Below, one piece after another: positions 12,997 through 63,598 of a stretch of DNA of 64,000 bases. Where the stretch lies: IMG/VR virus record IMGVR_UViG_3300021962_007571, positions 1-64,000 of that record, one strand, 5' to 3'. Each line of letters begins with the position of its first letter. The stretch's first letter is position 1. A model generated the notes under the pieces. The model saw only the letters and a program-made list of their open reading frames with translations, was not told the origin of the DNA and did no database searches. Position numbers and translations under genes: made by a program. This stretch comes from a virus.

Positions 12997-13812
12997 TTAA
13001 TATTTAATTTTTTTGCCTCCAGATGTAGAATATGTTTGAATAATGTTATCTGGGTCACCCTCAAAATGTTTCTTAATCGCTTCTACATTTCTAACATCAT
13101 CATCTGAAAAACCTATTGTTGGTAAAAAGAAATTCTTCACGTTATTTTTAAGGTACGCCTTTTTGTTTAACTCGTGAGAAAGTCCTTTAATATAGTTCAT
13201 AAACTCTTTTAACGCTTTTACTTTCTCCTCTTCAGGATTTGCTTCCGCACCTGTTCCAAACGATACAGGATAAAATCTACATAAATCAAGATATGTCTTA
13301 ATTAAGTCCATATCATTTAAATCCTCTTCATCTGCAAAATTTCTGAATTTTTTTAAATTTTTAACAAGTTCTTTTTTGTCTATTCCGTTGAAACCTGAAA
13401 TAATATAGTTATAAACTCCTTCTTTTAAAGTGTTTGGGTTGTGACCCCTCGCAGTTATTATCGAAAAAATCGAACCGTTATTAATTGCCTCCACAAAATC
13501 ATCCCAAGCGGGACCTGTTTTAGCTAACATAGCATCAACTAAAAATGATTTATCACCTTCAGTTCTAAAATTTCTAAATGGATTTTCCGCAAAACCCACA
13601 ATAGTTTTACCATCATACTCAAACTCTTCTTTACCAATTTGAGTTCTATATTGTGCAAAATCCTCAGTGGTCATCCCAACTTCATCACCGTTACTATCCT
13701 TTAACATAATTCTAGTCGGCATTGTTACGATGTTATCGTCCCAATCAAAAGCATAGTACTTTAAATCTGGTGTTCCTTCTTGAGTAAATCCTTCGTTTAT
13801 TATTCTTTTCAT
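12997..13812 (-). CDS. HAD-superfamily phosphatase-like protein
   Basis: Motif I FDWDDN, motif II ITARG, Lys in EEKVK, motif IV GFSDDD; N-terminal MKRIINE leader. Confidence 0.65.
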   Translation of the reverse strand: MKRIINEGFTQEGTPDLKYYAFDWDDNIVTMPTRIMLKDSNGDEVGMTTEDFAQYRTQIGKEEFEYDGKTIVGFAENPFRNFRTEGDKSFLVDAMLAKTGPAWDDFVEAINNGSIFSIITARGHNPNTLKEGVYNYIISGFNGIDKKELVKNLKKFRNFADEEDLNDMDLIKTYLDLCRFYPVSFGTGAEANPEEEKVKALKEFMNYIKGLSHELNKKAYLKNNVKNFFLPTIGFSDDDVRNVEAIKKHFEGDPDNIIQTYSTSGGKKIKY

Positions 13813-13829
13813 ATTTTAATTTAAAGGCT

Positions 13830-13855
13830 AAAGGTGGGGATTACTCCCCACCATT
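13830..13855 (-). terminator. Hairpin/terminator after the sheath gene
   Basis: GGTGGGGA-GTAA-TCCCCACC followed by a short T tract on the minus strand. Confidence 0.6.
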
Positions 13856-13863
13856 TATAAGTA

Positions 13864-16800
13864 TTAGATATTGTCAAATGACGCACCTGTTGGTGTAATC
13901 AAGAACTCAATATCGATGAATTCTAATGCTTTAGTTGGTTTGATATAAATCTTACCTACTAATTGGTTTTTATCTAAATCTTCAGTTGAAGACGAAACTG
14001 TTACACGGAAATCGTATAAACCTCTGTCTCTTCTGATTGCATCTAAGATAGGGTTAACTGAATCTAAGAAGTCTTGTCTTACTTTCTCGTCATTTTGTTC
14101 AAATAACAATCTTACTGCTACTGCTGAAATTAATTTACGAGCTTGTAACAATAATCTTCTTACGTTGATTCTGTCAAGTGCAGATTCTCTAACTTGTAAA
14201 GTTTTGTTACCCCAAATTACAGTTCCCACATCTGAGAAGGTTGCAATTGGGTTAATTCTACCAACATAAAGAGTATCTCTATCTTCTTGAGTCAGTTTAC
14301 GTCTCGCTTTGATTGCGTTTACTAAACCTCTTGTGTAACCCGCTGATGCGAACCAAGGGAATGCGATATTATCTGTTAACGCTAAGTTTCTTGTCACTTC
14401 AGCAGTTGCTGGAATGTAAATCTGAGTGTTATTAACAGTATCACGAGTTAATACCCAAGGGTAGTAAGTTGCGGTGTAGTTAGAGTCAATACCTGTTTGT
14501 TCCAAGTTATCAACCGCTTCAGTTGGGTAGATGAAATCTTCTTGGTTTGTAGTTGTAGGTACAAACATATTAAAGTCAGGTGTTGTACAAACGTATAACG
14601 AGTCTGCTCTATCATTTTCAACCATATCAACCGCCGCTTCAATTAAGTTACTATTGTTAACATAATCAATACCTGGTGTTACAAACACGTTGATGTTTAC
14701 CGCCTCAGGGTTAGAGAATGTTTTTTGACCTAATAGATATGCGTAGTAGTCAGTGTTTGCCCAATCATTTGAATCATCACCTACAGTTATTCTTGAGAAT
14801 AAACCATTACCTGTTGCATTTGTGTATCTATCGTCAGCACAAGCTCCTGCCAAGTAACCTGATTGACCTAACACGAATCTGTCTCCGTTTGTTCTATATT
14901 CTCTATAGATATCCCAACCATCGAAACCTCCAGCCACAAATAATGTGTATTTTCTAGAGTATAGTCTATAGTATGGACTATCTGTATTTGTAGGTTCGCT
15001 ACTGAATGGTGCCGAACCAACCGCAAATGCAGTTTGACCTGAAGTCGTATATCCATCAGGAATTGTTACTACAGTTGCTCCTGAATCCATATGGAAACCT
15101 TTAGTTATATATGGCCAACTTTGTAAAGCTGGTGAACACATAGTACCTAAATTTTGTTTACCAACATATTGGAAGAAATCTAAGTCATATCCAATTGATG
15201 TAGATAAACCTAAATAAGTACGTCTAACGTTATCTCCTGAAGAAACTGCAGGGTCATCATTACCTGTTGAATATCCAAATGGCGGGTTATAAACCACCTC
15301 GCCAGGGAAATCATATTTAGTTTTGTAGATTGGGAATGGAGAAGTAACACCATCGTATAATCTAAAGTTATATCCTTCATAACCACAAGGTAGTGAATCT
15401 ACAGGTGCATCTTCATTAATCTCAACCATTATAAATTTAGAGTTTAACGCAAATTCACCATCTTGGGAACCAATCTTTTTAGCTACGAAATTGTTTTGAC
15501 CTGGGTCCATAGAACAGTTTGTAAACTTTTCAAGTACTACAGGTGCATCATCAGTATCGTAAAAATCACGAACAATAACATCGAATGTTGAATTGTTAAA
15601 TGAAATATTTGCTATTGATATTTTTAATTGGTCGTTAGCACTGTTACCGTCAGCAATTGATATAAATTTAAATAATTTATAAACTTGACTACCTCTTAAT
15701 TCAGAAACTAACCAAGGAGATTCAGGTGTTTGGTATTTTTCAACATAAAATGCGATGTTATCCAATTCCTCACTTCTTGCAGAATTTAATGCTACTAAAG
15801 ATTGTCTTAAACCTCTAATGTAACCTTTTTTATAAGCCCAATTTAATAAACTTGAGAATCTTTCTTCTAAAAATAATGGAACCTCTGTTCTTGGTTTAGA
15901 GAAGTTACCTAATCCAAATACTTTAGATACATAAGTTGAGTCTGAACTTTGTAATGAAGTTTTGAACACATATGTTTTTCCATCATCATTAGTTACATTA
16001 ACCGCAAATGGTGCAAAAGGATTTTTAGTAACCGCACTATAACTACCACTGAAATCTAAAGTAACCGCACTTAATTGACTAACTTCATAATCAGGTCCTT
16101 TTTGAGTTGAATTATAATTAGATAAACCTCTAGAACGTAAAGTTGCAACTACTAAATTGTTGTAGTTACTATAAGAAGTACCTGTGTAGTAATATAACTT
16201 ACCGTGTACAGTTCCTGAGAAACAATCTGGGATTGTTGTAGTTGTTGTACTTACAGGAATTGTTGTAGTAGTTGTGTTACAAGGATTTTGAGTTGTACTT
16301 GTTGTTGTTATTGGTGCTGAAGTTGTTGTAGTAGTTGTTGTTTTTGGTAACAATGTTAAATCTGTTACAACAGTCCAAAAAGAATAACCTGAATAACTGT
16401 TTCCTGAATAGTTATTAAATAACGCGTAATACCAAGGGTCATTGTATGAAGATGTATAATCTGTCTGTGCAGAATCTACACTTGGTACACCAAATACGTT
16501 GTTAGTGTTTGCCGAGAAAACAGGGTTTAAGATATCATAATCATAACTTGGAATTGTACCCCAATAATTGATTGAAGACGCACTTAAACTTGGTTGTGCA
16601 AATATACCTAATAATTGGTCTTTAATGTCTTGAGACAATGAAGATGTTCCTCCATCAAATTGAGTATATTCATTTGTTAATATATTTTGTATTTCTTCAG
16701 GGAAATTAGTTAAGAAAGTTATTGAACCATCTTGGTTTGAACAACCAGTAAATGTAACATCGAAACTAACAGTCTGTGCAGTACAATTAATATCACAAGT

Positions 16801-17208: not shown

Positions 17209-17334
17209 TATTTTTTAAATTTCTGTTCAGTTTTATTTATTCATAAATATTCGTTTTTAGATGAAAAAACTTTACTTTTGAAAACATATTTATATTCTGG
17301 CAGACTTTTTTCTGCCTTTTTTCTACTTATTAAT

Positions 17335-17499
17335 ATGAAAGAGCCAATCAAAAAGATTAAAAATCTTAAAATTTCGGTGGAATCACACGATATCCTAAAA
17401 AGGTACTGTGATAAGAGAGGTATTAAAATTTATAAGTTTATTGAGAACTTAATAATCGAAACTTGTAAAGAAAAGAAGGATATCTACGGAGAAAGTTAA
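17335..17499 (+). CDS. Small ribbon-helix-helix-like DNA-binding protein
   Basis: MKEPIKKIKNLKISVESHDILKRYCDKRGIKIYKFIENLI: strand followed by two helices, typical of RHH. ATG 17335 preferred over TTG 17278. Confidence 0.6.
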   Translation: MKEPIKKIKNLKISVESHDILKRYCDKRGIKIYKFIENLIIETCKEKKDIYGES

Positions 17500-18536: not shown

Positions 18537-19081
18537 TACTTTCTTATTTCATTAATTACAAATAATTTATTTTTTTTGTTTATCATATCAACTTCTTTTG
18601 CAGTGTATACTGGCTTCTCATTTGATTTATAAACAAAACTATCGTATTTGTAAGGATTGTATGTGACTACATTATCGTTAGCCTCTTCAGGAATATTTTC
18701 ACAAGGGTATTGACAATAATCAACCAAAGTACCAATAACAAATGCGTGAACATTCTTACTTTTTTCACTTCTAACTTTATCTTTACCACCTTGTCTAACT
18801 CTAAACTCAACATCTGTTAATTTAACATAATCGGCGTGAAGAATAACTTTTGACTTATATGTGACTGAAAACGTATGTTTGTGTAAATTATAGTAAACCA
18901 TAACTCTTAATCCTTTAAAGTCCTCTTCAGAATTATTGTGACCACATTTATGACAAATATATGGGTCGTCCCCTCCTTCAGATAAATCCCAAGACCAACC
19001 ACACTCGTCACAAATTACTTCATTATTTGTGACAGTTTCCATTATTAAATTTTTTTGTCTTTCGCTAATTATTATTTTCAT
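18536..19081 (-). CDS. Hypothetical protein with Zn-ribbon and a conserved phage domain
   Basis: CDECG..CHKCG, then YYNLH...KNVHAFVIG; MKIIISERQKNLIME leader. Confidence 0.5.
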   Translation of the reverse strand: MKIIISERQKNLIMETVTNNEVICDECGWSWDLSEGGDDPYICHKCGHNNSEEDFKGLRVMVYYNLHKHTFSVTYKSKVILHADYVKLTDVEFRVRQGGKDKVRSEKSKNVHAFVIGTLVDYCQYPCENIPEEANDNVVTYNPYKYDSFVYKSNEKPVYTAKEVDMINKKNKLFVINEIRK

Positions 19082-21470: not shown

Positions 21471-23138
21471 ATGAAAAATCTGGTAAATAAGATTGAAACG
21501 TTAGAAGAGGAAGTTCAGAAAAATGAAAAGGACTTCGCAAAAAAATTCTTCATTAACGAAATGAAAAAAATAGGAATAGAAAGACTACCCTACTCATATA
21601 GTTCCCTTAAAAGATTTATTGACCCTGAAACTATGGATGTTCACTATAACAAACATTATAAAGGGTATGTCGAAAAATTAAATTTAGCCTTAGATAAGAA
21701 AAAATTTGGTGATTTAGATTTAGAACAAATTGTTAAAACTATTAGTAGATTTAATAAAACTGTTAGAGATAATGCGGGTGGTGCTTACAATCACGCTTTA
21801 TTTTGGAAAATGTTGTCACCAAAAACTCAAAAACCAAAAGGTATGATTTTAAAACGTGTTGAAAAAGAATACGGTACCTTTGGTAATTTTAAAAAGAAGT
21901 TTGAGGAAATTGCTAAAGAAAGATTTGGTTCTGGTTGGGTTTGGTTAGTAGTAACAAAAACTAATAATCTAAAAATAATGTCCACCCCAAATCAAGACAA
22001 TCCTTTGATGAACGATGTTAAAAATGGTGGATATCCAATATTAGGATTAGATTTATGGGAACACGCATATTATCTAAAATATCGTAATAAAAGAGACGAA
22101 TACATTAAAAACTTTTGGGATGCGGTTAATTGGGATTTTGTAGAAAAATTATACAAAATGAAAATTGAAACAAGAATTGATGAGGATATTGTGATGCAAC
22201 AACTTATGAACGCTTCCAATAAAGACATCATCACAGAACAAGAAGCTAAGTCTCAAAGTTGTTCTCACGGTGAAGAAATAAAATTTAAACAATTACTATT
22301 TCCCTCTTCAGATTTAAAACAAAAAACAACCCTCTATTCAAGATTCAAACAAGACTATGTTAGAGGATGGATGGATATACTTAAAAAATCGTATCCTGAA
22401 AATTGGAAAGAAAAAAATTCTTTATTTGTTGGTCACGAATCAGGTTTATACAATAAAGAAAACGTTAGGTCGTTACTAATGAACTTAACTTCATCTTATT
22501 CGGCATTCTGTATTATTCATAAGGATGTTAATCAATATTTAGTCCAAAATAATCAATCACCAATAGAATACACAAACGACCCAAAACACAATTTGTCTGA
22601 ATTAAGAAGATTTTTCTCAGTTTTAGATGGTATTCGTTCGATTATTTTTAATAGAGAAAATCAATCAAATACTTTAAAACAAATTGGAGGAGTTCTTAAA
22701 AAAACAGATTGTCTTGGTAAAAGAAATGAGGACGCCGCTTGTAAAATAATTAATCAAAATTTAGGTGATGGTTCTTGTAAGATAGAATCAGGTGCGGGAC
22801 ATTCAAATGATATGTTATCAGGTATTGACGCAACATTAAAATTAGAAGGTAATAATTTAACCGCTCAAATAAAACCTTACAAAACAATTGTGGTTTCTGA
22901 TAATTTTGTAGCAATACAAGGGTCCTCAAGTACTCAAGAATATAAAAAGGTTGATACTATCATTTTTGTTAATGTAAAATCACTATCTGTTAAAATATTC
23001 AAAACTAATAATATTAAAATTGAAAAGGGTAACTTTTTAATTCCAAAAGAAAATGAAATTATGTCTATTGTTGGAACAGGAGATATTGAACTAATTGATT
23101 GTAACAAATATTTATCAGAAAACGCAATATGGGAATAA
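21471..23138 (+). CDS. sodA: Mn/Fe superoxide dismutase fused to a C-terminal PD-(D/E)xK-like domain
   Basis: HYNKH, GGAYNH, FGSGWVW, PNQD, DLWEHAYY (GG plus NQD is the Mn-type signature); about 320 extra C-terminal residues. Confidence 0.9.
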   Translation: MKNLVNKIETLEEEVQKNEKDFAKKFFINEMKKIGIERLPYSYSSLKRFIDPETMDVHYNKHYKGYVEKLNLALDKKKFGDLDLEQIVKTISRFNKTVRDNAGGAYNHALFWKMLSPKTQKPKGMILKRVEKEYGTFGNFKKKFEEIAKERFGSGWVWLVVTKTNNLKIMSTPNQDNPLMNDVKNGGYPILGLDLWEHAYYLKYRNKRDEYIKNFWDAVNWDFVEKLYKMKIETRIDEDIVMQQLMNASNKDIITEQEAKSQSCSHGEEIKFKQLLFPSSDLKQKTTLYSRFKQDYVRGWMDILKKSYPENWKEKNSLFVGHESGLYNKENVRSLLMNLTSSYSAFCIIHKDVNQYLVQNNQSPIEYTNDPKHNLSELRRFFSVLDGIRSIIFNRENQSNTLKQIGGVLKKTDCLGKRNEDAACKIINQNLGDGSCKIESGAGHSNDMLSGIDATLKLEGNNLTAQIKPYKTIVVSDNFVAIQGSSSTQEYKKVDTIIFVNVKSLSVKIFKTNNIKIEKGNFLIPKENEIMSIVGTGDIELIDCNKYLSENAIWE

Positions 23139-24241
23139 TATCAGAACCACACAGGTCAAAATTATACACAAGAGTTAAACATCTTTTAGGTGCACCGATA
23201 AGAAGTGTCGAATTAGAAGATGAAATGTTAGACTCGTTATTAGAATTAGCAATTGGAGATTATTCACAATATATCCAAGATTGGTTAATTGAATCTCAAT
23301 GGTCGGCATTACAAAATTTAAATTTAGATGAACAATCTTTAGCCAGAGCTTTTGTAACTAGAAGTTTAGACTATGAAACACGTTATAGTTACGCATATTC
23401 TAAAATTGTTGGACTACAGGCTGGTGGTGATTGGGTGTTGAAAAAAGATTTTATTGAACTTAAAAAAGGTCAACAATTGTATGAAATACCTAAAGGTAGA
23501 GAAATCAATGAATTACTTTGGTTTACACCTGCTGAGTTAACAAATATTTTATTTGACCCTTGGTCTTTTGGGGCTATGGGTGGACCTGGACTTGGAGGTC
23601 CTGGCGGATACTCTCAATTAGGTTATAGTGGTTCTTATTTCTTAATGCCTGCGTTTGATATGTTGTTAAGAATGCAAGAAATTAACATACAGAGAAGAAT
23701 TATTTCTTCAGAATTAACATATAGAATCACCGCGTTACCTGATGGTAAAAAAATGGTTCATTTAATGAACACACCAGGAGGTAAATTTGATTTTGGTAAT
23801 TCAAATTTTTACAGTGGTAAAGTTTGGTATTGGTATTATGATGTTGATGGCCCAGATAGAGATAAGTGTTTGGCAGAAAATCCTGATATTATCAAACTAC
23901 CTTCAGATGTTCCTTTTGATGAAATAGCTTGGATTGATTTAAATAACCCCGCCCAACAATGGGTTAGAAGATGGTTTATCGCTCTTTGTAAAGAAACGTT
24001 AGGAAGAGTTAGAGGGAAGTATAGTGGTAACTTAAAAACACCTGATAGTGAATTAACTATGGATTATCAAAGTTTATTAACTGAAGGTAAAGATGAAAAA
24101 TCTAAGTTAGAAGAAGAACTTAAACTAAGGTTAGAGAGAATGAGACCTGAAAAAATGATGGAGAAAGAAGCTTTAACCGCAGAAAATTTAAATAAGGCAA
24201 TGAAATTTAGAGCAATGCCAAGACAAATATACGTAATTTAA
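23129..24241 (+). CDS. Neck/head-tail connector (gp13-like)
   Basis: LLGAPIRSVELEDE N-terminus; WVRRWFIALCKETLGRVRGKYSG...LLTEGKDEKSKLEEEL C-terminus. Confidence 0.75.
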   Translation: MGIISEPHRSKLYTRVKHLLGAPIRSVELEDEMLDSLLELAIGDYSQYIQDWLIESQWSALQNLNLDEQSLARAFVTRSLDYETRYSYAYSKIVGLQAGGDWVLKKDFIELKKGQQLYEIPKGREINELLWFTPAELTNILFDPWSFGAMGGPGLGGPGGYSQLGYSGSYFLMPAFDMLLRMQEINIQRRIISSELTYRITALPDGKKMVHLMNTPGGKFDFGNSNFYSGKVWYWYYDVDGPDRDKCLAENPDIIKLPSDVPFDEIAWIDLNNPAQQWVRRWFIALCKETLGRVRGKYSGNLKTPDSELTMDYQSLLTEGKDEKSKLEEELKLRLERMRPEKMMEKEALTAENLNKAMKFRAMPRQIYVI

Positions 24242-27863: not shown

Positions 27864-28667
27864 TTACAACATAATATCAAAATATTCTCTCCAATCAGAT
27901 TTAATTAAATGAAATAAATCTTTTTGTTTAGAATAACAGATATCAAATATCTTCTCATCACTACCAATATATCCATCATTAATTGACTCTTCTATTGTAT
28001 TAACAACTAAGTCCAATAAATTATCTATTAAATGTGAAGGTAATAAAAATGCGGTTCCCTGTATATGTCTTATCTGTGATAAACTATGATATTCTTTATT
28101 TGGTATTGTAAAATCTTCATTGTGACTAAAAAATGTGATTTTGTTAGGGTCCAAAGATTTAACTTTTAATATGTTTGGCCATTTTTTGTTTTTATAAAGA
28201 TTAATATCATTTCTTAAACCTCCAGCATCTGCCCAAATAACAATATCATTATTAAAATAATTGTTGTCTATAGTGTCTTTAAGAAAAAAAACTTTGTTAA
28301 ACATTATTATGTTGTATAAAGGTTGACACATTTCGGGAACATCGGGGAAACTAACCTTAGATTTAAAATCTTCTGAAAACATTAGACCACTTAAAGAGTC
28401 GTAATATTTTTGATACATAGGTAACTCAGATAGAGGTTTCTCAATAAAGATAGTTTTTTCAAGATTAGGGTCAAACTCTTTTCTATATTTAGTTAATTCG
28501 TCAACAAATTTAGATTCTGTGTATACCACAATATTACAATCTAATGATAGTGTATTTCTCATCCACCAACCATAGGTGTGATAAGACATTCTAAAATTAT
28601 TCCAATTTTCTCTACCAATATCATATAGAGCCATTACTATAACAGGATTATTTATATCCATTCCCAA
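27864..28667 (-). CDS. HtrL/YibB (WlaTC)-like glycosyltransferase
   Basis: VMALYDIGR, YNIIMFNK..F, WADAG, GSDE patterns. Confidence 0.65.
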   Translation of the reverse strand: MGMDINNPVIVMALYDIGRENWNNFRMSYHTYGWWMRNTLSLDCNIVVYTESKFVDELTKYRKEFDPNLEKTIFIEKPLSELPMYQKYYDSLSGLMFSEDFKSKVSFPDVPEMCQPLYNIIMFNKVFFLKDTIDNNYFNNDIVIWADAGGLRNDINLYKNKKWPNILKVKSLDPNKITFFSHNEDFTIPNKEYHSLSQIRHIQGTAFLLPSHLIDNLLDLVVNTIEESINDGYIGSDEKIFDICYSKQKDLFHLIKSDWREYFDIML

Positions 28668-29407
28668 TTAACTTTAATATTTTTATGTTGAATATCCACT
28701 TCGTTTACATCAAAATAATTTGAAGTGTTATCAGAGTTTATTAATGTACTTAATTTAAATCCGTACTTATTTAAAACTGTAGGGACAAATCCTTCAGAAT
28801 ATGCGTAATACCCGTTATTGTTAAGCTCAAGTAATTTTTTTAACGCCTTATTTGAAAATCTTGTTGTCGGGAAAAACGAACCAAACATTTCGTTAGTTTC
28901 TTCAGGTAGTACGTCTCCGTCACCAGGAAATCTATCAAACCAAAGACTTTTTGAGAAAGTTTTATTGTCAATAGTTGGCACATTTTGTTGTGAGATTACC
29001 CCGTCTTTTTTAAAACAAAAATATGACATAAAATCAGAATCATCTTTGTCTGTTCCTAAGAAAAACTCTTCCCAATTTTTTATTTTAATATCATCATCAA
29101 AAAACCAATAAAAATCGTAATTAGGATTTTTCACATAAAAGTATAACATCCTTAAATGAGCAAAAAACCAAATAATATTTCTATTACCATACGAGTTCCA
29201 ATAATGATTTTTACTAACATCTATGTTAAAATTAAGATTTTCTCTAATTTCTTTTTCGGTATATTTAAATCCGACATCAAATGAAGAATCATTTGTAATA
29301 TCTGACACCCAAATTAATCTTTTATCTTCTTTTGGAAAATTATTCCAATTATCAACATAACTTGGGTACATATTAGGTGTTGTACAAACACAATTTATAT
29401 TATTCAT
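28652..29407 (-). CDS. Putative GT-A glycosyltransferase
   Basis: YDFYWFFDDDI (DxD), RFSNKAL, YSEGFVPT; inside the GT operon. Confidence 0.55.
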   Translation of the reverse strand: MNNINCVCTTPNMYPSYVDNWNNFPKEDKRLIWVSDITNDSSFDVGFKYTEKEIRENLNFNIDVSKNHYWNSYGNRNIIWFFAHLRMLYFYVKNPNYDFYWFFDDDIKIKNWEEFFLGTDKDDSDFMSYFCFKKDGVISQQNVPTIDNKTFSKSLWFDRFPGDGDVLPEETNEMFGSFFPTTRFSNKALKKLLELNNNGYYAYSEGFVPTVLNKYGFKLSTLINSDNTSNYFDVNEVDIQHKNIKVNWEWI

Positions 29408-30218
29408 ATTCTTTAGTTAAAATTTCATTCCATTCAGGAATTCTATTAAATTGATGTACTATATCGTACTTTAAATTTTCGTGAGTAAAAACTTCATTAC
29501 CGACTAACTGAGCAACTCCGCCATATCTACCTATAAATCCGTTTTTAAAACCCCAACTTTCAAAAAATTGTGTTGGTCCGCCTAAAGCACAATGTAACGT
29601 CCACCCTTCAGTAACTTCAAATATTCTTAAATTATCAATTTTATTTTCAAATATCATAATAATTAAAGCCGCTTGGTCTTTAATGTTGTGGTTATTTAAT
29701 CCGTTTTCACACATCAAAAACAGTTCATCGTACAATTTAATTAATGACTCTCTTTTACCTCCAATAACTCCTGAACAAATAATGTCTTGATTTAAACACT
29801 TACCAAAGTATTCGGGAAAAACCTTATTTATTACGTCAGTATTCCAAGGTTCCTGTATTAATTTTAACCCTTCAGAACCTACAAATACGTCATAGTTTAA
29901 ATCCATTTTAGTAAAAGGGTCTGATTGGAATACAACATCAAAAACGTCAGTGATTAAGAATAAATCTATATCACTAGTTTTTAAAAATTCTAATGTTTTA
30001 CCAAGTCTTTTATGATTAATATAATAGGTATCGTCAATACTAACAGGTATTGATATGATACCAATTTCTTCACACATTTTAATTTCTTCTTCAGTTGAGT
30101 TGGCACATAATAGGATAATATCACCATCCGAATATTTTTTAAAACTTTTTGACCATACTTTTATTTTATTAAAATTTAATTTAATATTATTTGATAATCC
30201 TAATAACGCTTTTTTCAT
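29400..30218 (-). CDS. Putative GT-A glycosyltransferase with PLOD/LH3-GT-like motifs
   Basis: ITDVFDVVFQSDP, ICSGVIGG, KDQAAL, VHQFNR. Confidence 0.6.
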   Translation of the reverse strand: MKKALLGLSNNIKLNFNKIKVWSKSFKKYSDGDIILLCANSTEEEIKMCEEIGIISIPVSIDDTYYINHKRLGKTLEFLKTSDIDLFLITDVFDVVFQSDPFTKMDLNYDVFVGSEGLKLIQEPWNTDVINKVFPEYFGKCLNQDIICSGVIGGKRESLIKLYDELFLMCENGLNNHNIKDQAALIIMIFENKIDNLRIFEVTEGWTLHCALGGPTQFFESWGFKNGFIGRYGGVAQLVGNEVFTHENLKYDIVHQFNRIPEWNEILTKEYE

Positions 30219-30225
30219 ATGTTTT

Positions 30226-30795
30226 TTAACAATTATTTAAAGATAAATTTAATTCTTCATTAAAGTTTAAAATTGTCGGCCAAAGATACTCAACACAGTA
30301 ATTGGTTTGATTTATTATTTCAGTTTTAGACAAAGTTTCTTTTATTTTTTTATAATATTCTAAACTATTTTTTAATATTAATTTTTTAGATACTATACAT
30401 TGGGCAGAACTAATAAATTTTATTGGTTGGTTATATGAAATATTATTTCTATTTGCATATTCTATTGTCTTTTCTAATTCATTACCGTCTCGAATATAAG
30501 TACAACCTAAAGGATAAAATTCGGTTTTAAAATCAAAACCATTAACTTTTTCAATAAACGACGGGCAATGGTCAAAAGGATAATCTTGAGAGAAACAAAC
30601 ATAGTCAGGTAAGTTTTCATAATTATCTATCATATATGTTAGATACGCAATAGTGTCGAAACCAACATTAGGTAAATTATTTTCAAACTTACTATTATTT
30701 TCAGGATTTTTATTATAGACAATGTTAGGGTATTTTATATTACTTAACCATTCTAAATTTCTATTGTAATGACAAACAATTACTACCAAATCCAT
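30226..30795 (-). CDS. DUF3431-like protein (putative glycosyltransferase)
   Basis: CHYNRNLEW, YNK, LPNVG, YLTYMIDNYENLPD, QDYPFDH, AQCIVSK, EYLW. Confidence 0.65.
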   Translation of the reverse strand: MDLVVIVCHYNRNLEWLSNIKYPNIVYNKNPENNSKFENNLPNVGFDTIAYLTYMIDNYENLPDYVCFSQDYPFDHCPSFIEKVNGFDFKTEFYPLGCTYIRDGNELEKTIEYANRNNISYNQPIKFISSAQCIVSKKLILKNSLEYYKKIKETLSKTEIINQTNYCVEYLWPTILNFNEELNLSLNNC

Positions 30796-30797
30796 TT

Positions 30798-32048
30798 TTA
30801 TAATTTTCCTTCAATTTTATCACACCATCCTTTAGATTCAGAATGAGGCCATACAACCCAATACGATGGTTTTTCTGCGGTTAAAAATTCTCTCCAAATT
30901 TTACAATAACCATCTTTATCATTCTTCAATCTATTGATTTCATTTTTATCGGCGTCTTTTCTATGTAAAGTTTCACCACCTTCTCTATGAAACGCAACCA
31001 CCCAAAAATCGTAATCCGTTTCAGATACTTGACTTAAACTAACATCAATACAATGTTTAAAAATTTGTGAAAAACTATTAATCCATTCTTCTTCATTTTC
31101 AAAATTATATGTGTTAGGAGGATATTTTTTATCTAAAGTTTCTTGTTGTACTGCCCTTTTACCAAATAAAATACCCGCATATTTTTCATAGTCACGTAAA
31201 GTTCTTTCAGTACCAAAACCAAAAATACCAAATTCTTCAGGGTCAAATACTTCACCATCCATACTAAATAATCTTCTATTTTTAGAATGTGAAAATTTAT
31301 TCTTCTCTCCCCAAGTTTTATCATCATCCCATTGTTTAGTTCTACCTTTACGAGTGTATTCGTGCCAACAAATAATTTTATGTGGGTGAAATAAATCATA
31401 TCCGTGAGTATAAGCTCTTGCGGCAATAGAAATTTCTTCACCGTGGAAATAAAATTCAGGGTCGTGTTGTACTTCTTTGGCAAACGAGCCTAAAGTAAAT
31501 GCGAAATGTGCGGAATAGAACCTACTCGGTACTGGTTCTTCTAAAGTATCCCAATTAGGGATTGTTTCAGGTAAAAAGAATATCGCGCCTTCAGGAATAA
31601 ATCTATCAAAAGACATTCTCCAAGGAACCATAACTCTACCATTTGGGTCGTTCTCTGGGTCAAAAGAAGATACATAACTTGTTAGTAAAGGTTTTTTATA
31701 ACCCTTTTCTTGTAGTTGTTTAATCATATTAATAGACATCTCATCCCAATCTTGTTGAAATCTCATATGAGAATCTATTTGTAAAGTATACTCTTCTCCA
31801 TCATATAACTGTTGAGTTAGATTTCTTGCCCAACAAACACCTTTAGACTCTTCATAAGGAATATTTAAAATTCTAAATCTATTATCATTTTCATACTCAG
31901 ACAAATCATCAAACTTATCATTAGGGTGAAATTGTCTTGCAATTGAAAAAATTAAGTTCTCAGGATTTTTAGCCTTACTAATGGCATCCTTAATAGTTGG
32001 TATTAGTTGGGGGTCTCGATAAGACGCAATTTGGATAAAAATTTTCAT
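30798..32048 (-). CDS. GT60-type polypeptide/hydroxyproline N-acetylglucosaminyltransferase
   Basis: IFIQIASYRD, SKGVCWAR..Q.LY.GE.Y.LQIDSHMRF, FHGEE...RAYTHGYD, ERTL.DYE match the Gnt1/OGNT (GlcNAc) family pattern. Confidence 0.8.
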   Translation of the reverse strand: MKIFIQIASYRDPQLIPTIKDAISKAKNPENLIFSIARQFHPNDKFDDLSEYENDNRFRILNIPYEESKGVCWARNLTQQLYDGEEYTLQIDSHMRFQQDWDEMSINMIKQLQEKGYKKPLLTSYVSSFDPENDPNGRVMVPWRMSFDRFIPEGAIFFLPETIPNWDTLEEPVPSRFYSAHFAFTLGSFAKEVQHDPEFYFHGEEISIAARAYTHGYDLFHPHKIICWHEYTRKGRTKQWDDDKTWGEKNKFSHSKNRRLFSMDGEVFDPEEFGIFGFGTERTLRDYEKYAGILFGKRAVQQETLDKKYPPNTYNFENEEEWINSFSQIFKHCIDVSLSQVSETDYDFWVVAFHREGGETLHRKDADKNEINRLKNDKDGYCKIWREFLTAEKPSYWVVWPHSESKGWCDKIEGKL

Positions 32049-32095
32049 ATCATTATTTTAGATACTAAAATATAATAAACAAAGAGTGAATATAA

Positions 32096-32126
32096 ATAAA
32101 AAATCCCCCAAGTTAGTTGGGGGATT
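32096..32126 (-). terminator. Intrinsic terminator after the collagen-like gene
   Basis: Minus strand ATCCCCCAA-CTAAC-TTGGGGGAT followed by TTTTT. Confidence 0.8.
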
Positions 32127-32150
32127 GTCAAATATTGTGTGATGTTATTT

Positions 32151-33008
32151 TTAATATATTTTATTTAACACAAATATGTCAGAGTATATTGAATTTAAAG
32201 CACTATTACTACTAAATTCTACTGTAACATCTAACGTATTTGAAACCGTGGTATTAAATGTTGTGTTATTAACCGTATTAAAGGCAAAACCTTCAGGTGC
32301 CGCATTAGATTGCTTTGTGGTATGAAATACTCCAAGGGACACAATTTCTCCAACTCCAGCAACACCTGTGTTTCTAATTGTGAAATTTATTGAGAATTGC
32401 CATACGTCATTTACCGCACCATTCATATTTTGAAGTCCACTATCAGCTAAAACAACTGAACCTGCTTTAACTCGTATTCTAATATCGTCGCCATTTCTTG
32501 ATGATAACAAACCTCCAAAATCGGCTCTAAAACTATCTCCAATTTGGAATTGGTTAGGCCCTACAGTAAGGGTACCTACACCACCATTGATTATTGATGA
32601 TTCTACAGTTGTGGCACTTACCACAACACTGTTACCTGTTTGAGAAAATAAACCATATACCGTAGGGAATGGTGCTGGTGGAGCAGATGTTCCTGAAGAA
32701 CCGCTAGTACCACTAGTTCCATCAGTACCTGAAGTACCACTAGTTCCATCAGTACCTGAAGTACCACTAGTTCCATCAGTACCTGAAGTACCACTAATAC
32801 CATCTGTTCCAGAATTTCCTGAAGTCCCACTAGTACCATTATTACCTGAAATACCACTAGTACCTGAAGTCCCATTTTGAGTTACCGCAGAAAAAGGTAT
32901 TGACTCAGTTTGTCCTGAAGCTACAGTATTGTAGTTTACGATAACCATCAAAGAATCTGAATATCCTGTGGTCGCTTTTGGTAATAATGATATTGGTAAA
33001 TCCGCCAT
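32151..33008 (-). CDS. Collagen-like fibre protein with a C-terminal beta-sandwich (BclA/C1q-like architecture)
   Basis: 21 contiguous Gly-X-Y triplets followed by a ~170 aa beta-rich domain. Confidence 0.7.
   Translation of the reverse strand: MADLPISLLPKATTGYSDSLMVIVNYNTVASGQTESIPFSAVTQNGTSGTSGISGNNGTSGTSGNSGTDGISGTSGTDGTSGTSGTDGTSGTSGTDGTSGTSGSSGTSAPPAPFPTVYGLFSQTGNSVVVSATTVESSIINGGVGTLTVGPNQFQIGDSFRADFGGLLSSRNGDDIRIRVKAGSVVLADSGLQNMNGAVNDVWQFSINFTIRNTGVAGVGEIVSLGVFHTTKQSNAAPEGFAFNTVNNTTFNTTVSNTLDVTVEFSSNSALNSIYSDIFVLNKIY
32685..32873 (-). repeat. Gly-X-Y collagen repeat (27-bp GTSGTSGTD units)
   Basis: Tandem gtaccactagttccatcagtacctgaa units. Confidence 0.9.
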
Positions 33009-33016
33009 TGTATTTT

Positions 33017-33274: not shown

Positions 33275-33275
33275 A

Positions 33276-40671: not shown

Positions 40672-40673
40672 CT

Positions 40674-41371: not shown

Positions 41372-41372
41372 T

Positions 41373-48110: not shown

Positions 48111-48713
48111 ATGAGAATTGGTATTGAAATAAATGGTGTATTGAGAAATACAATAGGTAAACTAGAGTTAGTTTATCAGAAATACCTTATTGACAAAACT
48201 GAGGGTATTGAAGAAGAAAATACATTTAAATATGAAATGATTTTACCCGTAACTAGTTTAAATTTAAGAGACCATTTTAAATTTGAAAACGATGAGGAGT
48301 TTTTTTCTTTCTTATATGAAGAATTTCCTATGGAAATATTTGGTCACGCAGGTTCGACAGAAACAATGACTTTTAACGACTTTAATGAATTTTACGTAGA
48401 TAATAGAACTGAACACGACATTGTTATTGTTTCAGATGAAATTGGTAAATCAAAACCAGCTTCATTATTTTTCTTATCTAAATTTGGATGTTTAACAGAA
48501 AAAGTAAAATTTTATAGTAATACTACAATAAATTCAATGTGGGATGAAATAGACATTTTACTTACGTCTAACCCTACCTTATTATTAGAACATCCGAAGA
48601 ATAAAATTGTTGTAAAATATGTTACAGAATATAACAAAGATATTGAAAGTGAATATGAAATTACAACACTTAAAGACTTAAATGATAAACTAAAACAAAT
48701 ATGGACACAATGA
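48111..48713 (+). CDS. 5'(3')-deoxyribonucleotidase-like HAD fold with degenerate catalytic motifs
   Basis: IGIEINGVLRN in place of IxxDxDGVL; YNK near the C-terminus. Confidence 0.55.
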   Translation: MRIGIEINGVLRNTIGKLELVYQKYLIDKTEGIEEENTFKYEMILPVTSLNLRDHFKFENDEEFFSFLYEEFPMEIFGHAGSTETMTFNDFNEFYVDNRTEHDIVIVSDEIGKSKPASLFFLSKFGCLTEKVKFYSNTTINSMWDEIDILLTSNPTLLLEHPKNKIVVKYVTEYNKDIESEYEITTLKDLNDKLKQIWTQ

Positions 48714-48982
48714 TGTTTAAAATAATGAATGAACACTATTTTTTAGATTTGGACGAAATAGATAATTTCATTCAGATTAAATCAAACCCAACTACGGGGG
48801 AAACAAGTGATAATCATATCAGTATTGTAAAATACGAAACAATTAAATTAATGTTAGAAGTATTAATGGATGGTAATGAAGAAGTTGATGAAGCCTTAGG
48901 ACAAAAGGGTTCAGGACTTTCAATACCATTTAAATTGGCCTTTAACACACTATTAAGTAAAAAACTATTAAAATCATTTTAA
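48701..48982 (+). CDS. Hypothetical protein
   Basis: Operonic ORF. Confidence 0.55.
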   Translation: MDTMMFKIMNEHYFLDLDEIDNFIQIKSNPTTGETSDNHISIVKYETIKLMLEVLMDGNEEVDEALGQKGSGLSIPFKLAFNTLLSKKLLKSF

Positions 48983-58099: not shown

Positions 58100-58591
58100 A
58101 TGAAAAAAGTTTTTAAATTAAAAGAGTCTGAATTAATAAAGATAATTGAGAAGGTTGTTAAAGAACAAACTGATGAAAGGTATATGTTCTTTAGTAACTT
58201 AGAACAAATTCAAAGACAAATGGGTTTGTTGTTAGATTTAAACCACGACCAAGTTAGTGAAATTTTAGAAAATGGTCACGATTGGGCTCAAGACCATATT
58301 GCCACCGCAAAAGAATCTATTGACCAAGTATTTGATTTCTTAATGAATGAAACTAAGAGTTTCCATAAAATGGGAGATGAATTAGGTACCGCACCAAAAG
58401 AAGACCAATTGGTTATGGGTGAAGGTAAGAAAAAAGCAGGTACTAAATTATGTAGTAGAGGTAAATCAGCCGCTAAATCTAAATTTAAAGTTTATCCTTC
58501 GGCTTATGCTAACGGATATGCGGTACAAGTCTGTAAAGGAAGTATGCCAGGATTAGATGGTAAAAAACGATGTTCACCACCTTATTGTTAA
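58100..58591 (+). CDS. Hypothetical protein, candidate internal head polyprotein
   Basis: MKKVFKLKESELIKIIEKVVKE leader; basic C-terminal domain (KFKVYPSAYANG). Confidence 0.55.
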   Translation: MKKVFKLKESELIKIIEKVVKEQTDERYMFFSNLEQIQRQMGLLLDLNHDQVSEILENGHDWAQDHIATAKESIDQVFDFLMNETKSFHKMGDELGTAPKEDQLVMGEGKKKAGTKLCSRGKSAAKSKFKVYPSAYANGYAVQVCKGSMPGLDGKKRCSPPYC

Positions 58592-58597
58592 TAAAAT

Positions 58598-59598: not shown

Positions 59599-60564
59599 TT
59601 ACTTATTCTTAATCACTTCAGTTATAACATCTTTTAAGAGTCTTGAGAAAGACTCTTTTTTTGTTTTATAACTAACCATTTTAGGTTTATTACCCGTACC
59701 TGATTTGTTATGTGTTTTTTCTACCCTTCTTTTTTGCTGACAAGCTGATTTTTTTTGAGAGTCACTCATTTTACCCGCAACTCCCGCGGCTCTACATTTT
59801 GGGTATCCTTTACTTGATGCGTCAGGTCTGCCACAGGGAGGATGTTTACCATCTTTATCTTTTCTACATATATTAACCCAAGGACCTTTAGGTTGTTTAC
59901 TACCTTTTGGTTTTTTCTTAGTACCAAACCAAACCCCTAAATCTTCAACAACTGTATTTTCGGTAATTTCAACCCACTCACTTACAGTATGTACATCGTG
60001 AACATCTCGTTCATAACTTCCGTTAGAATCTTTTTCCCAAACACCAATAACTGTTTTAATATTATTTTTCAATGTTTTCTGCTTACTTTTTTTATTTATT
60101 TTATGTTTTGAATGTTCTTTAAATGGACCCAATTCACTATCAGACCATTTTTTTAAACCTATTTCAATTGGGGCTGAGTAAGGTCCCGAAGTTACTGTAG
60201 AACTAATTTCGTTAATTTTTTTGTTTCTACCAGGTGTCGGATTAATAATATCTCCATCATCGTCATTTTGAATAGGATGATTTTTAGAATAATTAGAACT
60301 CTGTTTAGCTTTCTTTTCAATCTTTTTTATAACCTTTTTAGGTTCGTCCATAGTCCCATCATAACTATCCACCGCCAATAAAGGACTAAAATATTTTGAA
60401 ACGGGCTCATTAAAAGGGTTTAATTGACTTTTATCAAATATTTTTTTACCTAATCGTAATGGTGCAATATATGAACCCCTTCCCGCAGAATCTGAGGTAG
60501 CCTCATTTATTGGTTTTTTAAAGTACCAATTTCTAACATCTTCTTCAAGTCTATCTCTATACAT
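59599..60564 (-). CDS. Basic hypothetical protein with internal repeats, candidate internal head polyprotein
   Basis: Two INE-preceded repeats; Lys/Cys-rich C-terminal domain; TATTTAT upstream. Confidence 0.55.
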   Translation of the reverse strand: MYRDRLEEDVRNWYFKKPINEATSDSAGRGSYIAPLRLGKKIFDKSQLNPFNEPVSKYFSPLLAVDSYDGTMDEPKKVIKKIEKKAKQSSNYSKNHPIQNDDDGDIINPTPGRNKKINEISSTVTSGPYSAPIEIGLKKWSDSELGPFKEHSKHKINKKSKQKTLKNNIKTVIGVWEKDSNGSYERDVHDVHTVSEWVEITENTVVEDLGVWFGTKKKPKGSKQPKGPWVNICRKDKDGKHPPCGRPDASSKGYPKCRAAGVAGKMSDSQKKSACQQKRRVEKTHNKSGTGNKPKMVSYKTKKESFSRLLKDVITEVIKNK

Positions 60565-61268: not shown

Positions 61269-61276
61269 TATATTTG
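61269..61276 (+). promoter_or_regulatory. Bacteroidota-type -7 element
   Basis: TATATTTG(TATTGT), the same extended motif as at 63062; no clear -33 element. Confidence 0.5.
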
Positions 61277-61299
61277 TATTGTAATTAAACGTAAACAAT

Positions 61300-61527
61300 A
61301 TGAAAAACTTAGTATTAGTAATCTTATCAGTAATCTTCTTATCTTCTTGCGCTACACAAATCCAACTTGCCGACGGACGAAAAGTTTCTAAAAGAGAACA
61401 CAAAAAAATGTTGGAGAAGGCTTGGAACGAAAGTTTTGGTAAAATGTCAGACCAAGAAAAAGACTTGATTTACAGTGTTCCTGTTATCGTAGACACTATG
61501 ACCGTGGTTCCAGATACTATTAAGTAG
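61300..61527 (+). CDS. Small lipoprotein
   Basis: MKNLVLVILSVIFLSS-C lipobox signal peptide. Confidence 0.75.
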   Translation: MKNLVLVILSVIFLSSCATQIQLADGRKVSKREHKKMLEKAWNESFGKMSDQEKDLIYSVPVIVDTMTVVPDTIK

Positions 61528-62992
61528 TTGGTTTTTGGAATATAATGTGTTGACCTGTTTTATACATTTTTCCATTATAACCAGCATCTTTTAATAAAGT
61601 GTAAGAACCATCAGTATTAGGAGTTTTACCAAAAAACCCACCATTAATAAATTTGTCAGTTGCAACTTTAACAGAATCGTTGTTAGTTGTATTAACAATA
61701 ATTGGTTTGATGACTATTGTAGACGTTTCAGTTTTTGGAATAACTTTAAGTTTATCCCCAGCAAACCATTCAGTATTTGTTGGGGTGTGTTTAAAGTATT
61801 TTAATACAATGTATGTTCCATCAGACTCTGGTTTTTTATTAATAATACCATTTTCAATATAGAAATTAGTGGTTTTTTCAGGATTTAACATTTCTAATTT
61901 TTTAACGTTACCTGTTAGTTTTGGTAAATTTTTATTTGAAGGACTGTCAACTTTAGTCGGTTGACCACTATCAACCCCTTTTTTCTTTAAATTACCACAA
62001 TTATCCAATTCCAATATTTTAATATCACCTGTAACACCTCTACCAATAGCGGGAGTACACTGATGAAATAAAACTGTATTACCTTTACTTATTCTAACTT
62101 CAGGTCTATCGGAGTGACAATCTGAAGGGGACAAACATTGTAAACTAATTACAATATCTTTACTTTCATTACCTATTATCGCCTTTGCTTTGGCATCATC
62201 CACAACTAATTTTCCACTTGTTCTATCACCACCAATTGGAGGATTTTTCTCTCCGTTATTTAAATTTGCCTTACCAATTGAAACTCCATTTAATTTAACA
62301 TCAAACAATGCAACATCACAATCGTGGTCCCCTCTACAACTAAATGGTCTACCATCAGTACCTATTGATGGTTGTGAAGATTTATCTTTTTTGTACATAA
62401 CCTCAACAGTTAGTCCTATAATACATTCCTCAGGTGGTTTAATAGCTAAAATTACTTTAACATATCTTTCTTTATCGTAATCAGGATTATTCTTATTACT
62501 TTGACCCTTAACATATTTAGTATTACCTAATATAAGTTCTGATGGTTCAAATATTGGCATTTCACTAATAACATTTTGAGATTTTAAACTTGAAAAATAT
62601 TGTTTTAAATAATTTTTCATAGTTTCGGCTCTTAATCTTGATAACTCTAAAGGTTTTAAAGATTTTTCTTCTGTAAAATCTTCGGACTTACCTGTTGACG
62701 GGTATTTTTCTCTATCATAATTTGTTACTTGAGATTCACTAGCGATAACTTTAACGTAAGTAATTCTACCTTTATTATTTCTTAAAAAATTTGCAGCTCC
62801 TTCTAAATCAGACTTTAATTTTTTTTCATCTTTCTTAGAAAACCCTGAATATTTCCCATCATCAAAAAATGATTGTCCTGACATAGTATATTCATTTTTA
62901 CCAGCAGGAGTTACTTGTTCAACAATATCATATAAAGATAATATTCCTATTCTCTCTTCTTCGGTTATTAATAATTTTCTTCTACAAGACAT
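61520..62992 (-). CDS. Protein with an OmpA-C-like domain and C-terminal repeats
   Basis: FFDDGK...VKVIASES...LSRLRAETMKNYL...ERYVKV; two DG(T/S)Y repeats; LITEEE leader. Confidence 0.5.
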   Translation of the reverse strand: MSCRRKLLITEEERIGILSLYDIVEQVTPAGKNEYTMSGQSFFDDGKYSGFSKKDEKKLKSDLEGAANFLRNNKGRITYVKVIASESQVTNYDREKYPSTGKSEDFTEEKSLKPLELSRLRAETMKNYLKQYFSSLKSQNVISEMPIFEPSELILGNTKYVKGQSNKNNPDYDKERYVKVILAIKPPEECIIGLTVEVMYKKDKSSQPSIGTDGRPFSCRGDHDCDVALFDVKLNGVSIGKANLNNGEKNPPIGGDRTSGKLVVDDAKAKAIIGNESKDIVISLQCLSPSDCHSDRPEVRISKGNTVLFHQCTPAIGRGVTGDIKILELDNCGNLKKKGVDSGQPTKVDSPSNKNLPKLTGNVKKLEMLNPEKTTNFYIENGIINKKPESDGTYIVLKYFKHTPTNTEWFAGDKLKVIPKTETSTIVIKPIIVNTTNNDSVKVATDKFINGGFFGKTPNTDGSYTLLKDAGYNGKMYKTGQHIIFQKPTT

Positions 62993-63037
62993 TCAAATAA
63001 TATTTATTATATAAATAGTTTAAATTTTTAAAATACT

Positions 63038-63069
63038 TTTGGCAGATTAAATAATCCGCCGTATATTTG
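63038..63069 (+). promoter_or_regulatory. Bacteroidota-type promoter for the small RNA
   Basis: TTTG (63038-41), 20-bp spacer, TATATTTG (63062-69). Confidence 0.75.
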
Positions 63070-63073
63070 TATT

Positions 63074-63186
63074 GTGATTGAGGGAAACGATTTAGATACA
63101 AATAAATCAATCATAGTTGTTGAGTCGAAAGAAGCTCAATTAGGACGGAGAAGGAACGATTTAGATACAACCCTCCGTCTTTTTTT
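63074..63186 (+). ncRNA. Candidate three-hairpin small RNA with a duplicated 16-nt loop
   Basis: Promoter, then stems GTGATTGA/TCAATCAT, TTGAGT/GCTCAA and AGGACGGAG/CTCCGTCTT plus a T tract; AACGATTTAGATACAA at 63086 and 63155. Confidence 0.7.
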
Positions 63187-63598
63187 ATACCCAAATAACT
63201 ATTTGGTCTTCACCAACTCTAAAAGGGTTTTCGTAGGATTCTCGGAATACTGTAACAATTAATAATTTCCACCCAACACCACCTTCATTAATGGCTTTGA
63301 TTGCAATCGCGATTTCTTTTTCAGGAGATTTAATTACAAAATAATCATTATTTTTAATGTCACCTATAGCGATTAATTCGGCAATTTTTTTACGACCAAG
63401 TTCAATAATATATTTAATTTCGGCGTTAGATATTTCTTTAGTATTATAATCTTCTATATCAGTTCTAGTTCTTCTATCATATGCGTGCGGACTTCTATCA
63501 AGTTCAAATGAATAGGTTACCTCAATCTTAGTGATTAAGCTACCTATCTTCTTCTCTAACAATAACTGTTCTCTGATTATTTGACGTAGTCTATTCAT
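63185..63598 (-). CDS. Putative RelE/BECR-fold ribonuclease-like protein
   Basis: SPHAYDRRTR near the N-terminus and LLIVTVFR near the C-terminus; MNRLRQIIREQLLLE leader. Confidence 0.4.
   Translation of the reverse strand: MNRLRQIIREQLLLEKKIGSLITKIEVTYSFELDRSPHAYDRRTRTDIEDYNTKEISNAEIKYIIELGRKKIAELIAIGDIKNNDYFVIKSPEKEIAIAIKAINEGGVGWKLLIVTVFRESYENPFRVGEDQIVIWV

Follow-up and report, generated by a model that had tools for sequence, protein, structure and literature searches.

The 64,000-nucleotide stretch of viral DNA analysed here (the window) is the first part of the 83,525-bp contig IMGVR_UViG_3300021962_007571. Eight of its genes had been singled out in an initial annotation as encoding unrelated proteins that open with short leaders ending in [ILV]-x-E, and each of the eight N-termini quoted there was confirmed at the stated gene start. 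We consider it probable that these leaders belong to a T4-like cargo-loading and processing system, in which they would act as capsid-targeting propeptides. The evidence for such a system appears strong at the level of the clade, where a 22-residue leader with a fixed terminal Glu recurs, and for two or three genes of the window; it is weaker for the rest. Genes are named by their lowest coordinate and their positions are collected in Table 1.

The sheath and capsid proteins place the phage, by their sequences, among the distant T4-like myoviruses, the "Far-T4" sequence space described previously (PMC4360716). Flavobacterium phage immuto, Microcystis phage Mel-JY01 and Rhodothermus phage RM378 come closest to it among cultured phages (30-42% identity each) and, judged by these, the clade may infect Bacteroidota. 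The capsid protein is encoded on at least 596 related IMG/VR contigs, and near-complete genomes of the same leader-bearing group measure 257-412 kb. The window is AT-rich (G+C about 31%).

The 22-residue leader in the clade, and 58100 and 59599 in the window

On contigs related through the capsid, the leader has the consensus MKK-(I/V)-(I/V)-(K/R)-LTE-S-DL-x-x-(I/L)-VK-(K/R)-(I/V)-I-x-E and heads about ten mature parts that have no detectable similarity to one another. A wider scan of IMG/VR, in which a degenerate nucleotide pattern covered no more than the first 12 residues of the leader, returned at least 118 stretches, and 80 loci were kept. These loci hold 98 leader open reading frames (ORFs; median 133 amino acids, aa), the mature parts of which fall into at least 71 BLAST clusters. 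I/L/V-x-E is present in every one of the 98, its Glu falling at residue 22 in 88 ORFs, at 21 in 6 and at 26 in 4. Glu22 is conserved in 85/85 leaders, residue 23 in 29/85. Synonymous codon changes are seen at almost all leader positions, with five synonymous codons each for Leu7, Ser10 and Arg18 (the last including AGA 35, CGA 20, CGT 8 and AGG 7 times). Because the codons drift synonymously and conservation falls after Glu22, selection is seen to act on the peptide, with the Glu as its boundary.

This pattern bears on the idea that the shared 5' segment is an element of the nucleic acid, either the boundary of a recombination cassette or a translation-initiation element, with no role for the peptide. 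T4-type phages do have regulatory cassettes that enable gene shuffling, and the leader genes lie in a hypervariable island, with up to four leader copies within about 6 kb on some contigs. Amino acids that stay fixed while the codons vary freely point to selection at the peptide level and largely refute this explanation, which we regard as very improbable; a cassette role could nevertheless exist alongside a function of the peptide.

A matrix built from the leaders of the 59599 family only, with near-identical copies of this genome excluded, recovers the leaders of the unrelated 58100 family at 20-22 bits. Its matches of at least 16 bits occur at 0.30 per 1000 N-terminal versus 0.02 per 1000 interior positions, an excess of about 15-fold. 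A hidden Markov model (HMM) of the leader gave 27 matches at E < 0.01 across related loci, all in loci fetched around the capsid gene; 16 are N-terminal, 15 of these lying downstream of the capsid gene (where 489 of the 1,035 genes lie), and 11 are internal, within long members of the 59599 BLAST family. Relatives also have a second variant, L-x-I-(S/T)-E-(S/E)-(D/E)-(K/R)..IL.LH.., exemplified by 61520, at the start of proteins of many lengths encoded beside the capsid gene. The modular tag put forward in the initial annotation therefore stands in the clade, and 58100 carries it; most of the eight genes have only variant or non-significant forms of it.

Residues 1-22 of 58100 match an HMM built on 83 independent leaders, none of them from this contig (E 5.5e-6; 6.9e-5 in a six-frame search). 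Its orthologues carry canonical or shortened leaders of variable length followed by a constant ..RYMFFSNLEQ core, and the site is retained in 96% of the 25 aligned sequences (this phage and 24 orthologues). The C-terminal part is a basic, Cys-containing module (58400-58591) with the string ..YPSAYANGYAVQVCKG.. that belongs to phrog_27331. On these sequence features 58100 is the best-supported cargo candidate.

The 21-residue leader of 59599 (60502-60564) ends in P-I-N-E21 before ATSDS... and is atypical in this genome, orthologue leaders being canonical. All 32 non-redundant leaders of the family end in [ILV]-x-E, at lengths of 10-24 residues and with otherwise variable sequence; at P1', the 31 members besides the phage's own copy have A (27), G (3) or V (1). 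The predicted mature start, usually ATSDSSGSRGS, closely resembles that predicted for the capsid protein. The C-terminal half is rich in Cys and Lys, and its basic Cys-rich region (59599-59950) corresponds to phrog_23735 and differs from the 58100 module. A PDB sequence-profile search with the 59599 family gave no match.

Eleven longer ORFs of the 59599 BLAST family, most of which align over much of 59599, hold a complete second 22-residue leader internally, at residues of about 130-395 and often starting with Met (for example L073:12210-13901, L063:7702-9000, L028:7109-8428, L033:7854-9464 and L046:5834-7060). These ORFs may be two tagged genes fused in frame, or cargo polyproteins. Flavobacterium phage immuto has proteins with similar N-termini, of the MKKSQLRQIIKE type, and one of its genes (L403:4265-4735) encodes, after a leader-like N-terminus, a ..PSAYRSGAIVRCRKG.. 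module of similar kind.

Protease, predicted capsid maturation site and the proposed mechanism

Cleavage of the T4 gp21 type, which the initial annotation had invoked, is backed by an S77 protease and by homologous sites in the capsid protein and in the protease itself. The protease aligns with T4 gp21, retains the catalytic motifs ELNHP and ISSRG and is intact; one S77 protease is present in each of five near-complete leader-bearing genomes examined (5/5; 257-412 kb). Its GILIE16 is aligned to the N-terminal LLIE9 of T4 gp21, a string listed as matching the gp21 cleavage logo (PMC9026906). In the capsid protein, ..ENQASFLINE60/A is aligned to ..GSFLTE65/AE of T4 gp23 (a slash marks the predicted cut); since T4 removes a 65-residue propeptide from gp23 (PMC9026906), L-T-E65 was taken as the maturation site. 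I-N-E60 is retained in 46/46 aligned sequences (this phage and 45 orthologues), and residues 1-60, the predicted propeptide ending I-N-E60/A, contain five conserved hydrophobic-x-Glu sites. At P4-P1 the leader most often reads V-I-(K/N/S)-E, which has the shape of the L-I-N-E of the capsid.

Conserved sites were counted in 35 orthologue families; orthologues were drawn from IMG/VR for the surroundings of the capsid gene and of 12997, 18536, the superoxide dismutase (SOD) gene and 40964. The regions that are degraded in T4 (capsid residues 1-60 and the scaffold) hold 15 conserved hydrophobic-x-Glu sites in 552 aa versus 87 in 8,993 aa elsewhere, a 2.8-fold excess (Poisson p 4e-4) that is somewhat weakened by the Glu-richness of the scaffold. 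A conserved site falls within residues 1-30 in twelve of the 35 families, among them the capsid protein, the scaffold, the protease and the 68928 core-position protein, and in these N-terminal regions a hydrophobic P3 is conserved at 15/30 conserved Glu columns versus 90/368 for other residues. In the orthologue sets of six candidates the motif is retained in 96-100% of the members, while the rest of the leader drifts in most; the figure is 96% for 58100 and 100% for 59599, 12997, 18536, the SOD fusion and 40964, with P3 retained in 98-100% of these five.

We propose that a serine protease of the S77/gp21 type acts inside the prohead, where it would cut after hydrophobic-x-Glu, and that the head would mature as in T4. 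The leader, an amphipathic helix that may or may not follow an MKK-hydrophobic stretch and that always ends in I/L/V-x-Glu, would dock its protein onto the scaffold core as the prohead assembles and would then be removed by the protease at its terminal Glu; the mature protein would remain in the head and exit with the DNA. We infer the docking, cleavage, packaging and injection, and with them the labels "anti-defence" and "injected". In its most specific form, which we put forward tentatively and with slightly more doubt than belief, the proposal describes a freshwater jumbo "Far-T4" clade (257-412 kb) with a hypervariable cargo island downstream of the capsid gene, in which one 22-residue leader, cut at Glu22 by the head protease, loads dozens to hundreds of unrelated proteins into the capsid for co-injection; an SOD fusion and a Pnkp-like repair phosphatase would be among them, as would polyproteins that hold leaders internally.

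Alternatively, the leader could be a functional N-terminal helix that is retained, serving oligomerisation, docking or as a tag for, e.g., a ClpB-like AAA+ unfoldase whose gene lies 15 kb away; the Glu would then be structural. The amphipathic character of the leader, its capping-box-like T-E-S-D and the position of the 18536 leader inside a PHROG domain agree with this, as does the presence at contig 78.7-82.3 kb of a ClpB-type ATPase, a UVR-motif protein and an M20-like peptidase, two of which have homologues in 7/80 leader loci. A retained helix fits less well with the exact end of conservation at the Glu, the leader length of 7-30 residues between families around a constant Glu, the clustering of leader genes beside the capsid gene, and the (V/L)-I-(N/K/S)-E at P4-P1 that the leader end shares with the T4-homologous capsid maturation site, and we judge it unlikely. 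Pfam or PHROG scans of the window ORFs (all but 12243-12419, 17278-17499, 48701-48982 and 61300-61527) and of most of the remaining contig revealed no radical-SAM maturase or maturase of the ribosomally synthesised and post-translationally modified peptide type.

Several observations weigh against the leaders being capsid-targeting propeptides. The loose motif, taken in this genome alone, is at background level: [ILV]-x-E occurs within the first 15 residues of 18/80 ORFs (22.5%), compared with 21% for interior windows of that size. Lengths of 12, 25 and 50 residues give similarly matched rates, and the claim that the motif marks out a set of genes here fails. Only 58100 is significant against the clade leader HMM in this genome, and a 13-column leader profile searched with HMMER against the genome gave no significant match. 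The large terminase and the neck protein carry equally conserved N-terminal sites, and because both are unlikely prohead-protease substrates the motif by itself is non-specific. T4 neck proteins join after head maturation, and MGIISE6 of the neck protein (retained in 96%, with IIPQNE or IIPDNE in some orthologues, and with Pro at P1') is probably a false positive of the motif. The density of conserved sites is 1.43 per 100 aa in N-terminal versus 1.02 in interior regions, a non-significant difference (p 0.13), and the orthologue sets of 12997, 40964 and 18536 are 65-85% identical, a closeness that by itself accounts for some of their conservation. For single candidates, phrog_26488 spans residues 4-56 of 18536, the "leader" of which is possibly part of a folded domain, and translation of the SOD gene possibly begins at Met31. 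The leader is not demonstrably homologous to MKTYQEFIAE, the T4 capsid-targeting sequence (CTS), the peptides being too short for a meaningful test, and a literature search found no virion proteome, N-terminal or packaging data for the clade.

Part of this list is what chance would produce, I, L, V, K and E being abundant in an AT-rich proteome and the eight proteins having been picked by eye with no function in common. Chance would account for the background rate of the motif, for the terminase and neck sites, for the seven of eight leaders that are non-significant against the clade HMM, and for the weakly N-terminal distribution of the 59599-family matrix in this genome (two N-terminal matches among the top ten). 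It does not account for the I/L/V-x-E that closes 98/98 independent leaders at a fixed distance, for the sharp loss of conservation after Glu22 with synonymous drift before it, for the 15-fold N-terminal excess of strong matrix matches, or for 32/32 variable-length leaders of the 59599 family that end at a capsid-like site. We count chance as already refuted for 58100 and 59599 and as the explanation of the loose motif itself; as an account of the whole, it is improbable.

The initial annotation had also tied the leaders to the upstream motif TATTTAT. There are 57 copies of it on both strands together, and it lies within 60 nt upstream of 26/80 genes versus about 1.6 expected from its density, at distances of 11-50 nt. 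The starts that bear it belong mostly to structural genes, including the scaffold, protease and sheath genes, and it is probably a late promoter element. Having TATTTAT or lying downstream of it is, once propagated through operons, true of 69/79 genes, so this property does not discriminate and the supposed contrast between late and non-late genes falls away. A copy of its own precedes four of the eight candidates only (59599 at -34, 61520 at -25, 63185 at -12 and SOD at -30), and the dUTPase, described as leaderless, has L-K-E at residues 18-20.

Further candidates in the window

Judged by their sequences, the candidates can be ranked: support appears strong for 58100, placed first, and 59599, moderate for 61520 and 63185, moderate to weak for 18536 and 40964, and weak to moderate for 12997 and the SOD fusion, which are placed last.

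Table 1 Coordinates of the genes and features discussed (window positions unless marked contig; a slash marks a predicted cut)
Feature	Position	Strand	Remarks
12997 protein, 271 aa	12997-13812	-	7-residue leader 13792-13812, MKRIINE7/G; between tail-tube and sheath genes
18536 protein, 181 aa	18536-19081	-	MKIIISERQKNLIME; leader 19037-19081, zinc-ribbon-like CxxC..CxxC, Phage_L5_gp82 domain
SOD fusion, 555 aa	21471-23138	+	Fe/Mn SOD; ..KKFFINE at residues 24-30
Neck/head-tail adaptor	23129-24241	+	N-terminus MGIISE6/P; PHROG head-tail adaptor
Operon	39396-41945	+	One TATTTAT (-21); includes 39396-40253 and 41373-41945 with conserved internal sites
40964 WYL-like protein, 135 aa	40964-41371	+	MKLINTIKTIISE; 13-residue leader 40964-41002, ends I-S-E13/A
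58100 protein, 163 aa	58100-58591	+	N-terminus MKKVFKLKESELIKIIEKVVKE; 22-residue leader 58100-58165, ends V-K-E22
59599 protein, 321 aa, very basic (isoelectric point 9.7)	59599-60564	-	..KKPINE at residues 16-21
61520 protein, 490 aa, basic	61520-62992	-	..KLLITEEE..DIVE; variant leader 62918-62992
63185 protein, 137 aa	63185-63598	-	MNRLRQIIREQLLLE; directly downstream of capsid gene
gp23-type major capsid protein, 610 aa	contig 63672-65504	-	Pfam Gp23, E 3e-72
Acidic scaffold	contig 65532-67010		Head module
70-aa gene	contig 67223-67435		Head module
S77/gp21-type protease	contig 67441-68169		Pfam PF03420, E 5e-23
Gene in T4 core-gene position	contig 68213-68659		
Gene in T4 core-gene position	contig 68928-69635		
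Portal	contig 69659-71497		Head module

The leader of 61520 has two Glu sites (..KLLITE11 EERIGILSLYDIVE25/Q), both of which are retained in three orthologues, two divergent (25-31% identity) and the third 77% identical. The label "OmpA-like" that this protein had received is not borne out, as the protein has no Pfam match, with none to OmpA up to E 5, and an LS..RA....YL-like string is visible by eye only. The leader of 63185 (63554-63598), a helix related to the clade leader, likewise has two sites, MNRLRQIIRE10 QLLLE15/KK. Its pattern is retained in few orthologues (43-64% identical), the ortholog search having given 10 loci, and the gene is a rare accessory one. It ranks second among the matches of the 59599-leader HMM, at a non-significant E of 0.42.

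In 18536, a protein with a Phage_L5_gp82 domain (Pfam PF25735, E 3.8e-31), I-S-E7 and I-M-E15 are both retained in 44/44 aligned sequences (this phage and 43 orthologues). Orthologue N-termini such as MKVIVTESQLRKIVE resemble, by eye, the first 16 residues of the 22-residue leader. In 40964, P3 and P1 are retained in 46/46 aligned sequences (this phage and 45 orthologues) while P2 varies (C/S/T/Y/N/V/L), and residues 3-13 are in register with positions 12-22 of the leader HMM, the match being non-significant. Its WYL label is borderline, the domain scoring 21.4 bits against a Pfam cut-off of 21.8.

12997 retains Glu7 in 46/46 and a hydrophobic P3 in 98% of the aligned sequences (this phage and 45 orthologues), and the orthologue leaders vary in both length and sequence (MKRQLKE, MFNKKILKE, MIEKYDIHE). 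Residues 2-7 are in register with the end of the leader HMM, again non-significantly. In the structural model of the protein (predicted local distance difference test, pLDDT, 82) residues 1-14 score below 50 and are disordered and outside the fold. The best fold match is the 3'-phosphatase of T4 Pnkp (Z 9.8, only moderately above background; root-mean-square deviation 3.5 over 133 residues), followed by many HAD phosphatases; this match came from the VIA-align search, Foldseek giving weak HAD rows only. The motifs FDWDDN, SIITARG and GFSDDD (the DxD, T and DD motifs) are invariant. The HAD label of the initial annotation thus agrees with the fold of the model compared with Pnkp, and it has no counterpart in Pfam or in PDB sequence-profile matches. 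Going by the modelled fold, a role of 12997 in nucleic-acid end repair is possible.

The SOD label is secure (Pfam Sod_Fe_N and Sod_Fe_C, residues 37-226, E 3e-39). An N-terminal helical extension of 30 residues (21471-21560) precedes the domain and ends in F-I-N-E30/MKKIGIE.LPY; the site is retained in 46/46 aligned sequences (this phage and 45 orthologues), and the extension drifts. The SOD domain is followed by a domain of about 320 aa that has no Pfam match, with a conserved Glu238 site in a variable linker just past the SOD domain. Its sequence context makes Glu238 compatible with a second cut that would part the SOD from the C-terminal domain.

Similar motifs had also been reported inside or at the C-termini of 39396, 40246 and 41373. 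The motifs in all three are weak and at most suggestive. The 190 aa of 41373-41945 include 7 conserved sites (3.7 per 100 aa versus an average of 1.0); the protein is not Glu-rich and has no leader at its N-terminus, and it might, like T4 gp67 and gp68, be a core protein processed into fragments. 39396-40253 has five conserved sites and the C-terminus ..NQIIKMLKSE.

Relation to known systems and genomic setting

In T4, a CTS is present on IPI, IPII, IPIII and Alt and is removed by the prohead protease gp21 (Mullaney & Black 1996; PMC9026906, PMC3012670). T4 propeptides have 7-65 residues and end in L/I-x-Glu, those of 10-19 residues target internal proteins to the core, and the CTS is common to internal proteins that are otherwise unrelated and fast-evolving (PMC9026906, PMC3012670). 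The system proposed here resembles that of T4 in its gp21-family protease, in the predicted cut after L/I-x-Glu, in propeptide lengths that fall within 7-65 residues, in the homology of the capsid and protease sites and in an unrelated, fast-changing cargo that has the leader alone in common. The leader and the T4 CTS also have a form in common, with an MK start, an amphipathic helix and a terminal aliphatic-x-Glu. Unlike in T4, the full leader has 22 residues and is bipartite, it heads at least 71 unrelated clusters versus a handful, it also occurs inside long ORFs that look like polyprotein fusions, and the candidate cargo, here predicted from sequence, includes an SOD fusion and a Pnkp-like phosphatase.

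The giant phages phiKZ, 201phi2-1 and SPN3US, which likewise have large genomes, use the proteases gp175/gp245 with the motif S/A/G-x-Glu, and many of their head-internal proteins are cut after Glu by this T4-related protease, often at redundant sites (PMC5694885, PMC10052503). In the present clade, P3 is aliphatic, as in T4, rather than small, and the capsid and protease are of T4 type; mass spectrometry located the cleavages of the giant phages, and those proposed here are predictions.

A literature search yielded no paper on the 22-residue leader. What differs from T4, on the sequence evidence, is the leader sequence, its bipartite form, its scale, the internal leaders and the kinds of cargo, the mechanism being of the known T4 CTS type. 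If the proposal is true, every leader-bearing protein is a candidate for delivery into the host with the DNA, a class to which T4 IPI (anti-restriction) and Alt (an ADP-ribosyltransferase) belong. Given a 22-residue tag and its fixed cut site, delivered proteins of this large, uncultured clade, including anti-defence proteins, could then be listed directly from metagenomes. The T4 CTS principle would extend to enzymes and polyproteins, and the injected arsenal would be far larger and more modular than the three internal proteins of T4. The similar N-termini in the cultured relative immuto would make the idea testable at the bench.

The head module, in T4 gene order, starts just past the end of the window, which itself contains the 3' end of the capsid gene (63672-64000, minus strand). 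The remaining window genes encode tail, baseplate and fibre proteins, a B-family polymerase, glycosyltransferases, a dUTPase, PhoH, FKBP and an MGS-like protein. A glycosyltransferase-like block (27864-35327), comprising the GlcNAc-transferase family PF11397, HtrL_YibB and DUF3431, adjoins genes for a collagen-repeat protein and fibres. In the accessory island, between the MGS-like and 61520 genes, a 75-aa ORF (61300-61527) has an N-terminus like a lipoprotein signal peptide (MKNLVLVILSVIFLSSC..). Past the window, the contig encodes a ClpB/ClpC-like two-ring AAA+ ATPase (79343-81367; AAA_2 E 3e-68, ClpB_D2-small) that is flanked by a small protein with two UVR motifs (78731-79138) and an M20/M42-like peptidase (81436-82263), with a KTSC-domain protein (78134-78376) nearby.

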